From NCBI RefSeq assembly GCF_041248615.1, contig NZ_CP158425.1: a stretch of DNA of 64,000 nucleotides. The stretch is one strand, 5' to 3'. Every line of letters begins with the position of its first letter. Positions within the stretch are counted from its first letter, which is position 1. The position numbers and the translations under genes are program-made. The DNA is from Escherichia coli. GTDB taxonomy: Bacteria; Pseudomonadota; Gammaproteobacteria; Enterobacterales; Enterobacteriaceae. This document shows, one piece after another, positions 59,824 through 61,857 of the stretch. A model generated the notes under the pieces. The model searched no databases and was not told the origin of the DNA. It saw only the letters and a list, made by a program, of their open reading frames with translations.

Positions 59824-60199
59824 AGGGCTGCATCAGCCAGGCCCGGATATAAATACATGCTCTGCCAGGTGAGTACCACTGCCCGGTAGCCGAATGATAA
59901 GTTTTGATTTCACGGTTGCAATTTCTCCCTCTGGCATCACTGCTCCACGATGCACCCCGATCAGCTTAGCGTCTGAAAATGAAGATGCACCGGACCTGCA
60001 TGAAGCGGAACGGTGCCCAGCTGAGTGTTTGTGGGCACAATGAACCGCAATTTCATGATGGGAATGAAAGATGGCTGGTGGCCCGCTGATATGAACGCTT
60101 ACCCTGCATAACGTTACTAACCACAATCTTTTCACTAAAAGAAAAAAGGGTTCCTCCGCTTTAGAGGAACCCTTTCAAAAGGTGCCGATGGCATACTAA

Positions 60200-60232
60200 T
60201 CCACACCCTGAAAAGAGGGGGGTTGCCCCCCT
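60200..60232 (-). terminator. strong GC hairpin immediately 3' of hok-like gene
   Basis: AGAGGGGGG-TTG-CCCCCCTCT followed by T-run on the minus strand. Confidence 0.6.
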
Positions 60233-60241
60233 CTTTGTCAG

Positions 60242-60400
60242 CTACTTACCGGATTCGTAGGCCAGGATAGCAAATACCTCCCTTGTTCCGTCTTTCATCC
60301 GCAACTCGCAAAGCGAGTTTCGTGTGAGCCAGGTGAATATCAACAGCGTTAAACAAACTATTAATATGCACAAAACAATGGGTTGGTTCGGCATTTTCAT
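60242..60400 (-). CDS. hok: Hok/Gef-family membrane toxin (type I toxin-antitoxin)
   Basis: 52 aa [52 protein letters not shown] closely resembles Hok; in-frame upstream extension is mok-like. Confidence 0.85.
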
Positions 60401-60754
60401 GGCCTTCTTCTCCTTGCATTTAAGCAGGCAAGAGGCTACGCTGTGTGTGACTAGCATACAGGGGCCTCGGGTTAATTGAAAAATTACTCGGGGCTTTCTG
60501 CTTTTACCACAGTCAAACAGTGTTACCGCTGGCTGGGGCAAAAGCCTCCAGCACCAGCGTCATTATATCACTCTGCCCTGATCAGCCAAACACCCTGCCT
60601 GCATAAATCATTGATTTATAATTTATTTGACATGAGTCACTTCCGGTTGTCGGAGACAGTCTTTTTACACTAAAGAAAAGGGTAACGGGCAGCTGCTTGG
60701 TCGGAACATACAGTGCAGTTCCTGCCCGTTTAATTTCCGGATGCAATGGTAGGA

Positions 60755-61360
60755 TCAGGAGGCACTGGTTCCGTTGATTAGGGAAAGCTTATGTGCCTGA
60801 ATACGGCTGTATTCGAGATGGGATGGAATATTACAGATGCGCTCCAGTCGATCATGCAGCCTCGTGTAGGTCAGTCGATGAATACCGGACATTTCATCAA
60901 GTAGCCAGCGCTTGATGTAAGGGTTACAGGAAAGCCGGGCAAGATCGTCGTCATCCACTTCGTCAAAGAACCAGTACTGCTCCATCGGGACTACCTGAAA
61001 TATCCACGGCCGGGGATAGTCCCCTGTGACAACCAAAAACCATGCGAGAAAGCATAGACACAGCTCAACGATCATCAGCATCGAAAATTGCGAATAACTT
61101 AGACCAGGCACATAGGGTGAACTATCCGCAACATACCCCCTGAACAATTCCGCCACAAGGTAGCCCAATAGCGACAAGGCCAGCATCAGGGTCAGGATTA
61201 ATCCCCCATTAAACGCTACCGAAGCCTTTTGAACCCGATCAGGTGCTGTCCGGCTGCGATAGTTGGTCACTACTCTTTCTACAAGTGCCCTTATGGCAGC
61301 CTGTTCTTTACTGACATCAGCTCCGGAAAAACCGGACGGGCTTTTATTTAATTCAGTCAT
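60755..61360 (-). CDS. hypothetical membrane protein (201 aa)
   Basis: Two hydrophobic helices. Confidence 0.45.
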   Translation of the reverse strand: MTELNKSPSGFSGADVSKEQAAIRALVERVVTNYRSRTAPDRVQKASVAFNGGLILTLMLALSLLGYLVAELFRGYVADSSPYVPGLSYSQFSMLMIVELCLCFLAWFLVVTGDYPRPWIFQVVPMEQYWFFDEVDDDDLARLSCNPYIKRWLLDEMSGIHRLTYTRLHDRLERICNIPSHLEYSRIQAHKLSLINGTSAS

Positions 61361-61575
61361 ACCCCACTCCTGTTATGTGCTCTACTGAACAAACACGTAG
61401 ATCATACAGAGCTCACGGACGCACTCCTGCCAGATAAAGGAGGGAATTTGGCTGTAAGACGGTTAGCCAACAGTTCAGGTTATGCGTGGGATCCGGCCAG
61501 TCAGAAAGGATTCCGTTATTAACAGGCAAGGTTAAAGGCAGATGGACGTTGAAATTGTGGATGCTAAAAGGGGTA

Positions 61576-61857
61576 TTACTCTTTTTCCTGCATAGCGGCT
61601 TTTTCAGCCCGGGTGGCCAGGCGAGCATTTCCGAAAGGTTCACGGACAAGCAGGGGCTTCTCCTTCTTCCAGCCCCTGATAGCCGTTTCTCCAAAACGAC
61701 GTGGTGCATTGCCGTTCCAGCGAGCAATCACATGATTATCATGAATTTCTATAATGACAACGGGGTGGACAATGACCGTTGTAATGGTGGTATTTCCCAT
61801 TTTGGTACGGGTTACAGACCAAACCTGCATCCCGGATTCCAGCTGGCTGATTTTCAT
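61576..61857 (-). CDS. hypothetical protein (93 aa)
   Basis: ORF only. Confidence 0.35.
   Translation of the reverse strand: MKISQLESGMQVWSVTRTKMGNTTITTVIVHPVVIIEIHDNHVIARWNGNAPRRFGETAIRGWKKEKPLLVREPFGNARLATRAEKAAMQEKE

Follow-up and report, generated by a model that had tools for sequence, protein, structure and literature searches.

Among described hok loci, those closest to the one analyzed here are parB of plasmid R1, together with its IncF relatives, and the hokC (gef)/mokC/sokC locus of Escherichia coli K-12. In R1, hok is driven by a promoter with a TATGAT −10 box, mutation of which abolishes hok transcription, and mutations in GAGG, the Shine-Dalgarno (SD) sequence of mok, abolish toxicity (PMC9841398). 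Further experiments with R1 indicated that ribosomes need to translate mok no further than the hok start, the Mok protein itself not being what matters, and that the terminal 3′ stem (G345/C358) protects the processed hok mRNA from 3′ exonucleases (PMC9841398). As the R1 reference, we used a fetched R1-type locus (L003) in which Hok is identical to R1 Hok and mok is annotated. In K-12, hokC is reportedly regarded as inactivated.

For IncHI plasmids, PCR addiction typing and several plasmid papers treat pure IncHI2 backbones as lacking hok-sok, and papers on the stability of IncHI2 plasmids attribute it to other systems, hipAB and higBA among them. Our literature search found no description of a Sok gene, a correct Hok start or a regulatory map for these plasmids, the matches being to IncF-derived hok-sok or to author names. 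Similarly, paper searches returned no report of toxicity, killing or stabilization by an IncHI hok/sok locus. We analyzed a 64-kb stretch of E. coli DNA, hereafter the window, in which an earlier reading of the letters alone had noticed a hok-like toxin gene. Judged from its sequence, the minus-strand region from 60590 to 60138 very probably constitutes an intact hok/mok/sok-type type I toxin–antitoxin (post-segregational killing) module in an IncHI plasmid backbone. It is an ordinary but complete copy of the classic "plasmid addiction" module, in which an antisense RNA silences the gene for a small membrane toxin, and is carried in the backbone of an IncHI2 resistance plasmid.

A hok-type locus in the IncHI backbone

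The locus is compact, spanning about 60590 to 60138 on the minus strand. Its hok coding sequence runs from ATG 60400 to a stop codon at 60242 and specifies a hydrophobic peptide of 52 aa. This peptide matched the Pfam Hok/Gef family (PF01848) with an E-value of 6.4e-18 and a score of 64.5 bits (cut-off 22) and shares 69% identity with R1 Hok, bearing out the earlier assignment of a minus-strand gene to the Hok family. The hok SD, AAGGAG (60410–60415, minus strand), is part of GCAAGGAGAAGAAGGCCATGAA, a stretch of 22 nt without a single difference between the window, the R1-type locus and 10 genome loci of other Enterobacterales. The PGAP annotation calls a shortened Hok of 39 aa that starts at ATA 60361. 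This call and the accompanying DUF5431 "pseudogene", described below, are annotation artefacts.

Many large conjugative plasmids of E. coli and Salmonella, such as pAPEC-O1-R (NC_009838.1), match the 541 bases that surround the locus at 100% identity, and the related plasmids that we fetched typed as IncHI2A. Enterobacter IncHI2 plasmids carry a version with 96% identity, and an IncHI1 plasmid carries a syntenic version with 84% identity. Because of this series of versions, we consider the locus to be a member of the IncHI backbone. The identical sequence was found in plasmids from several genera. According to a Pfam scan, the flanking genes are uncharacterized hypotheticals without a Pfam domain, and neither an Rfam scan nor a tblastn search with HokC found a second hok copy in the 64-kb window. 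A 100-aa ORF just downstream of the terminator (59833–60135) has no Pfam match, is unannotated in pAPEC-O1-R and was treated as spurious. A phage origin was rejected, as a phage collection gave only weak partial matches to other hok/mok genes.

In public records of IncHI2 plasmids that carry the identical sequence, the toxin is already labeled "Hok family toxin". Since the toxin is thus annotated and the leader is caught by Rfam, both the kind of system and this member of it are known to databases, and the present result is an annotation refinement rather than a discovery. Better annotation is its main value: in the public records, Hok is truncated, the mok "pseudogene" is spurious and Sok is missing. 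With all elements placed, there is also a testable map for work on the stability and curing of IncHI2 plasmids that carry mcr and ESBL genes.

Promoter and leader of the hok mRNA

A consensus scan of 60000–60800 yielded a sole promoter-like site, which matches 10 of 12 consensus positions and precedes hok. This hok/mok mRNA promoter (60562–60589, minus strand) comprises a −35 box, TTGGCT (60589–60584), a 16-nt spacer with a TG, and a −10 box, TATAAT (60567–60562), that aligns with the TATGAT box of R1. From homology to the R1 start site, the hok mRNA is predicted to begin at G60555, 6 nt after the −10 box. Based on alignment to the R1-type locus and on folding, the primary transcript is predicted to be about 414 nt long (60142–60555, minus strand).

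The sequence-only reading had proposed a covariance-model search for hok/sok RNA elements. Scanning the whole window against Rfam at the gathering threshold, we obtained a single match, to RF01794 ("sok"), with a score of 81.1 bits (gathering score 59) and an E-value of 1.9e-16. The match covers the full model (1–157) and lies on the minus strand at 60556–60398. The same model also matches the leaders of the R1-type, IncHI1 and K-12 hokC loci. Despite its "sok antitoxin" label, RF01794 has the orientation of the hok mRNA, its consensus running from the mRNA 5′ end to the hok AUG. In K-12, the match is on the hokC/mokC strand (L002, 602–754, minus) and the annotated sokC ncRNA is on the opposite strand (653–711, plus). 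We therefore rejected the match as the Sok gene itself: being in mRNA orientation, it proves a hok-type leader but does not alone locate Sok.

Reading frames upstream of hok

Upstream of hok, its frame stays open as far as 60541, and within this extension an ATG lies at 60457–60455, 57 nt (19 codons) before the hok ATG. The putative mok SD, GAGG (60465–60468, minus strand), lies 7 nt upstream of this ATG, in the motif and spacing of the R1 GAGG-N7-AUG. Together, the SD and ATG (60468–60455) form the mok initiation motif of the hok/sok family, and the mok-equivalent leader frame that begins with this ATG (60401–60457, minus strand) is open through the hok start, the mokC-type in-frame variant. 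An in-frame, mok-like extension upstream of hok had already been noticed from the letters, and it proved to be the known mokC/hokC layout. The frame follows from the distance: with the mok AUG 57 nt, and not 58 nt, upstream of the hok AUG, mok falls in the hok frame. Read-through of the leader frame would yield a 71-aa Mok–Hok protein.

Besides K-12 mokC/hokC, the IncHI1 version, the Enterobacter version and loci of three other genera have mok in frame, and the in-frame and out-of-frame (R1) layouts alternate among close relatives. A reading of the extension as an anomaly or a sequencing frameshift was rejected, as it is identical in many plasmids and shared with IncHI1, the three other genera and K-12 mokC. 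Because R1 requires mok translation only up to the hok start, an in-frame mok is compatible with the established mechanism.

The −1 frame contains an ORF of 57 aa (60246–60419, minus strand) with similarity to R1-type Mok. It matches PF17496 (DUF5431) only at profile positions 14–70 (E 2.3e-18). A full-length, 70-aa DUF5431 Mok running in the −1 frame from the mok start is not present, the homologous start at 60457 being in the hok frame. The label that PGAP gives the −1 frame ORF, an incomplete DUF5431 pseudogene, is an artefact that arises because mok is expected in its R1 frame. We rejected 60419–60246 as a functional mok, as it lacks an SD, has a UAA directly before its ATG and lies outside the Sok-covered region; it probably stays open only because the hok nucleotide sequence is conserved. 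By its sequence, then, the leader ORF is mokC-like and not a DUF5431 protein.

A predicted antisense gene opposite the leader

To place the antisense gene, we used homology to the R1-type locus and to K-12 SokC. The sequence-only reading had expected a Sok-like gene on the plus strand within 60400–60540, and the homologous features fall at 60414–60505. The predicted Sok promoter (60414–60442, plus strand) comprises a −35 box, TTGCAT (60414–60419), a 17-nt spacer and a −10 box, TACGCT (60437–60442). The predicted transcript, of about 57 nt (60449–60505, plus strand), would consist of a 5′ tail, a hairpin (60459–60500) and a U-run, its 3′ end being placed by analogy to K-12 SokC. The proposed start, G60449, lies 8 nt inside mok and corresponds in the alignment to the 5′ end annotated for K-12 SokC. 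The predicted RNA folds at −20.4 kcal/mol (z −3.2), and its complementarity to the hok leader is complete across the mok SD and AUG. Its 10-nt tail, GACUAGCAUA, is single-stranded in the predicted fold and complementary to the mok start and AUG.

We compared 13 homologous loci: that of the window, those of IncHI2 Enterobacter, IncHI1, an IncFIB Salmonella plasmid and the R1 type, and eight genome loci. In all 13, the promoter geometry TTGCNN-17-TANNCT-6-G is invariant, and the spacer sequence varies. Each of the two Sok hexamers matches the consensus at only three of six positions, and the consensus promoter scan returned nothing above threshold at this site. This weakness explains why no promoter had been seen by eye.

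The undetected promoter could also be read as a sign that there is no Sok, the folding of the mRNA alone controlling Hok and the plus-strand hairpin merely mirroring the SD/anti-SD hairpin of the leader, inasmuch as any leader hairpin automatically generates one on the opposite strand. We regard this as extremely improbable. The TTGC-17-TAnnCT-6-G spacing and key bases are invariant in the 13 loci although the spacer varies, the plus-strand hairpin is followed by a U-run, and the homologous position in K-12 is the annotated ncRNA sokC. The data favor a plus-strand antisense Sok gene, with a predicted promoter at 60414–60442 and a predicted transcript at about 60449–60505.

Fold of the predicted hok mRNA

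The sequence-only reading had also described two strong hairpins behind hok, at 60200–60232 and 60146–60173, as resembling the folded 3′ end of hok mRNAs. Both were recovered with small shifts. Hairpin 1, AAAGAGGGGGG-CAA-CCCCCCUCUUU (60236–60212, minus strand), has an 11-bp, G/C-rich stem (−19.6 kcal/mol, z −3.3) and is homologous to the terminal 3′ stem of the processed R1 hok mRNA. Hairpin 2 (60176–60144) has a 14-bp stem (−21.8 kcal/mol, z −5.6) and is followed by a U-run; according to a terminator scan and the fold, the combined element (60138–60176, minus strand) is an intrinsic terminator of the hok transcript. By analogy to R1, hairpin 1 would be the protective 3′ stem of the processed mRNA and hairpin 2 the terminator, with the fbi (fold-back inhibition) region between them.

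The predicted 414-nt mRNA has an MFE of −169.2 kcal/mol (z −7.8), and none of 100 shuffles folded as well. Together with the Rfam score, this puts the observed elements well outside what chance would produce. In this full-length MFE structure, nt 1–10 of the transcript, corresponding to the tac (translational activator) box 5′-GGUGCUGGAG (60555–60546, minus strand), pair with 60190–60181, 39 nt from the 3′ end. The latter segment belongs to the fbi region (60181–60204, minus strand), the remainder of which, 60204–60191, pairs with the mok start region (60446–60459), to which it is complementary. AGCCCC, the ucb/anti-SD element (60490–60495, minus strand), sequesters the mok SD in a hairpin. 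This closed fold matches the published closed form of R1, and the match extends to the A·C mismatch opposite the SD adenine and to the third tac nucleotide, which is unpaired in the tac/anti-SD stem (PMC9841398).

Shorter versions of the RNA were folded in silico. The first 40 nt form a local tac hairpin, like the metastable nascent structure of R1. In RNAs ending at 60192 or 60197, the MFE structure has tac paired with the anti-SD and the SD free. For ends at 60205–60209, the open tac/anti-SD fold lies 1.9–5.4 kcal/mol above the MFE (about 2 at 60205), so the switch from SD sequestration to tac capture of the anti-SD is plausible but not demonstrated by thermodynamics alone. By analogy to R1, the full-length mRNA must include the fbi and so reach 60181 or beyond, and processing would yield an active form whose end lies just after hairpin 1, at about 60205.

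When each of the 13 homologues was folded independently, nt 1–10 paired with a box 38–43 nt from the 3′ end in every case. The tac–fbi helix (helix 1) is 94% paired across the set and has two compensatory columns: one is C-G in 10 sequences and U-A in the three IncH sequences, and the other is U-A versus G-C. As nt 3 is paired only in tac–fbi and not in tac/anti-SD, the IncH-specific U3-A change speaks specifically for the pairing of the RNA ends. The whole structure, projected onto the homologues, is 76% paired, compared with 40–46% in controls in which the partners were slid; the covariation score is 0.168, compared with at most 0.094 for the slid controls. Terminator helices 16 and 17 carry compensatory changes, and hairpin 1 corresponds to helix 15. 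Together with the Pfam domain, the Rfam leader, the 78% identity to the R1-type locus and the mok initiation region, the tac/fbi pairing with its compensatory changes supports the overall hok/mok/sok reading.

Integrity of the locus in related plasmids

In most related plasmids, the locus is broken by IS150, by an IS186-family element or by a relBE segment. In sister plasmids, IS150 sits at 60470–60473, inside the Sok hairpin and the hok leader. Hairpin 1 is a hot spot for IS186-family insertion: in pSA186_MCR1, it contains an IS421/IS186-family element flanked by a 12-bp duplication, GGGGCAACCCCC (60218–60229). The IS186A behind K-12 hokC occupies the same relative site and adjoins it by the same IS end. 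Some Enterobacter IncHI2 plasmids have a relBE-carrying segment in place of everything upstream of 60414, which leaves an orphan hok, its ORF and SD intact, lacking the hok promoter, the mok start and sok. That hok/sok genes of E. coli and Klebsiella lie close to IS hot spots has already been noted in a preprint (10.1101/527788). Recurrent insertion of IS150 and of IS186-family elements mirrors the chromosomal hok loci of K-12 and provides a small extra data point for hok loci as insertion hot spots.

Counted per record and not per event, 807 of 1016 PLSDB records are uninterrupted over 60150–60290, at most 509 of about 1026 over 60400–60540 and at most 400 of about 1040 over the whole locus. 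The last figure indicates that the locus is dispensable and possibly counter-selected. Clonal inheritance may explain much of the pattern.

That more than half of the related plasmids tolerate disruption by IS150, an IS186-family element or the relBE-containing replacement might suggest that the locus is a decaying relic, similar to hok/sok in appearance and no longer able to kill or stabilize, either because Hok is non-toxic or because the mRNA cannot be activated. The shortened, 39-aa PGAP call with its mok "pseudogene" and the weak consensus of the Sok promoter point the same way. Nevertheless, we consider a relic very unlikely: the window retains an intact ORF, the hok and Sok promoters, the SDs of mok and hok, tac/fbi, the anti-SD and the two hairpins; the compensatory tac–fbi change of the IncH clade indicates that the RNA fold is still under selection; many plasmids, from several genera, carry the sequence unchanged; and the "pseudogene" stems from the expected R1 mok frame.

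That plasmid lineages persist although the locus is often lost from them, and that IncHI2 plasmids carry several other maintenance systems, could instead be taken to mean that the locus is active and mainly serves a purpose other than plasmid maintenance. Phage exclusion (abortive infection) and growth arrest in stress or persistence have been proposed for other hok loci, and R1 hok/sok is reported to reduce the propagation of phage T4. Such a role is unlikely in our view, as the sequence holds nothing that distinguishes it from that of a canonical locus and the neighboring hypotheticals lack Pfam domains. The preferred reading remains an intact module for post-segregational killing.

A more tentative proposal concerns the IncHI in-frame leader. 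The coupling ribosomes may make a 71-aa Mok–Hok fusion; if this fusion had an activity of its own, toxic or protective, the control logic would differ from that of R1. In addition, lineages in which the killer is active may have been selected to lose it, so that IS target preference would not be the sole cause of the disruptions seen in more than half of the sequenced IncHI2 plasmids. We consider this proposal doubtful.

Proposed mode of action

The analysis shows the sequence homology of each element, the predicted folds and their conservation, with compensatory changes, among relatives; from these and by homology to R1, we infer transcription of both RNAs, 3′ processing, cleavage by RNase III, toxicity and plasmid stabilization. 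According to this model, which follows R1 parB, a constitutive promoter would produce a stable hok mRNA of about 414 nt starting at G60555. In the nascent mRNA, the 5′ tac box would fold locally. Once the mRNA is complete, tac would pair with the fbi at 60181–60190, the adjacent 3′ sequence would cover the mok start, and AGCCCC would hold the mok SD, GAGG. Locked in this way, the full-length mRNA would be neither translated nor bound by Sok.

Slow trimming from the 3′ end back to hairpin 1 would then remove the fbi, and tac would capture the anti-SD, freeing the mok SD and AUG. Ribosomes starting at ATG 60457 would read through the hok SD region, here in the hok frame, which would allow Hok to be synthesized. 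As long as the cell carries the plasmid, the short-lived Sok RNA would use its free 5′ tail to pair with the start region of mok, leading to destruction of the duplex. In plasmid-free segregants, Sok would decay first and Hok would be made, resulting in membrane damage and cell death.

Comparison with described systems

The locus and K-12 hokC(gef)/mokC/sokC have the same arrangement of reading frames: in both, mok is in the hok frame, starts at exactly −57 nt and shares one common stop with hok. The Rfam leader model matches both, and the Sok 5′ end is at a homologous G, 8 nt inside mok. In K-12, IS186 occupies the GC-rich hairpin behind hok, and an IS186-family element occupies the same hairpin of the sister IncHI2 plasmids with the same IS end adjoining. 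The two loci differ in their toxins, HokC being about 30% identical to the Hok of the window by tblastn, and in their context: the K-12 locus is chromosomal, whereas the window copy is on a plasmid and uninterrupted.

The nucleotide sequence aligns with R1 parB and its IncF relatives at 78% identity over the promoter, leader, ORF and 3′ UTR. Hok has 52 aa in both R1 and the window (69% identity), and the elements follow the same order: promoter, tac, anti-SD, mok SD/AUG, hok SD, hok, GC hairpin, fbi and terminator. The geometry of the Sok promoter is shared, and the fbi is 39–40 nt from the 3′ end in both. By contrast, the R1 mok AUG is 58 nt upstream of that of hok and in another frame, which stops 4 nt before the hok stop, whereas mok of the window starts 57 nt upstream in the hok frame. 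The tac and fbi sequences are GGUGCUGG and ..GGCACC in the window but GGCGCUUG and ..AAGCGCC in R1, a compensatory change. Finally, the leader in the window is about 17 nt shorter, and the host plasmid is IncHI and not IncF.

No description of the IncHI1 homologue (for example, CP099202.1, locus L018) was found in the searchable literature. It is syntenic, lying behind the same gene for a 201-aa hypothetical protein, and is 84% identical to the locus of the window. The two share the same tac/fbi variant, the in-frame mok and the layout of the Sok promoter, and they differ in sequence divergence only.

Annotation of the hok locus in public records

The canonical 52-residue Hok is obtained from an ATG at position 60400, which is preceded by an AAGGAG SD sequence. 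In an IncHI2 plasmid that carries the identical locus (L001, 6222–6399, corresponding to window 60242–60419), the RefSeq/PGAP annotation gives Hok as a protein of 39 residues that starts at an ATA codon, corresponding to position 60361 of the window. The same record also lists an ‘incomplete DUF5431’ pseudogene at the locus.

The window matched the Rfam model RF01794, ‘sok antitoxin’, at 60398–60556 on the minus strand. This model runs in the same sense as the hok mRNA leader and stops at the hok AUG. In E. coli K-12, the RF01794 match within the hokC/mokC/sokC region (L002, 602–754) lies on the strand opposite that of the annotated sokC. The strand given by RF01794 matches should not be taken as that of the antitoxin.

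A Hok identical to that of R1 is encoded on short contigs attributed to Streptomyces morookaense (contig164; L006) and to an Oscillibacter metagenome-assembled genome (L007). These loci most likely represent contamination of the assemblies with enterobacterial plasmid DNA. Separately, a 93-residue hypothetical backbone gene upstream of hok in a sister IncHI2 plasmid (L014, 671–952), whose counterpart in the window lies at roughly 61575–61856 on the minus strand, is labelled ‘Brucella suis mprF, defensin resistance, identity 100%’ by PLSDB/RGI. The mprF label on this 282-bp CDS looks like a spurious resistance call.

Rearrangements at the locus

In sister IncHI2 plasmids, the Sok hairpin and hok leader are split by IS150 (window 60470–60473; L014, 2059–3500), and the GC hairpin 3′ of hok carries an IS421/IS186-family element (L015, 3924–5260) with a 12-bp duplication corresponding to window 60218–60229. 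In E. coli K-12, IS186A occupies the same relative site 3′ of hokC as this second insertion, with the same IS end next to it. Overall, the locus is uninterrupted in at most ∼400 of ∼1040 related PLSDB records.

In plasmid pOSUEC_D of Enterobacter hormaechei (L016, 2917–3772), all DNA upstream of window position 60414 has been swapped for a segment that encodes a cytochrome b and a cation-diffusion transporter and also contains relBE. The hok ORF and its SD sequence are intact directly downstream of relE, leaving an orphan hok without its promoter, sok or the start of mok.

In the window, the ∼315 bp directly beyond the hok terminator (59826–60141) hold only an unsupported 100-residue ORF. In the Enterobacter variant, this stretch is replaced by unrelated DNA containing a 106-residue CDS; one breakpoint coincides exactly with position 60141, where the U-run of the terminator ends, and the other lies at 59826.

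Comparison with described hok/sok systems

In PCR-based addiction-system typing, plasmids with an IncHI2 replicon alone score hok-sok-negative, and genome papers assign hok-sok to co-integrated IncFII segments (PMC4855149, PMC6306219, PMC10547704). The native IncHI hok/sok, which is ∼78% identical to an R1-type locus, seems to have been missed by R1-based primers and descriptions.
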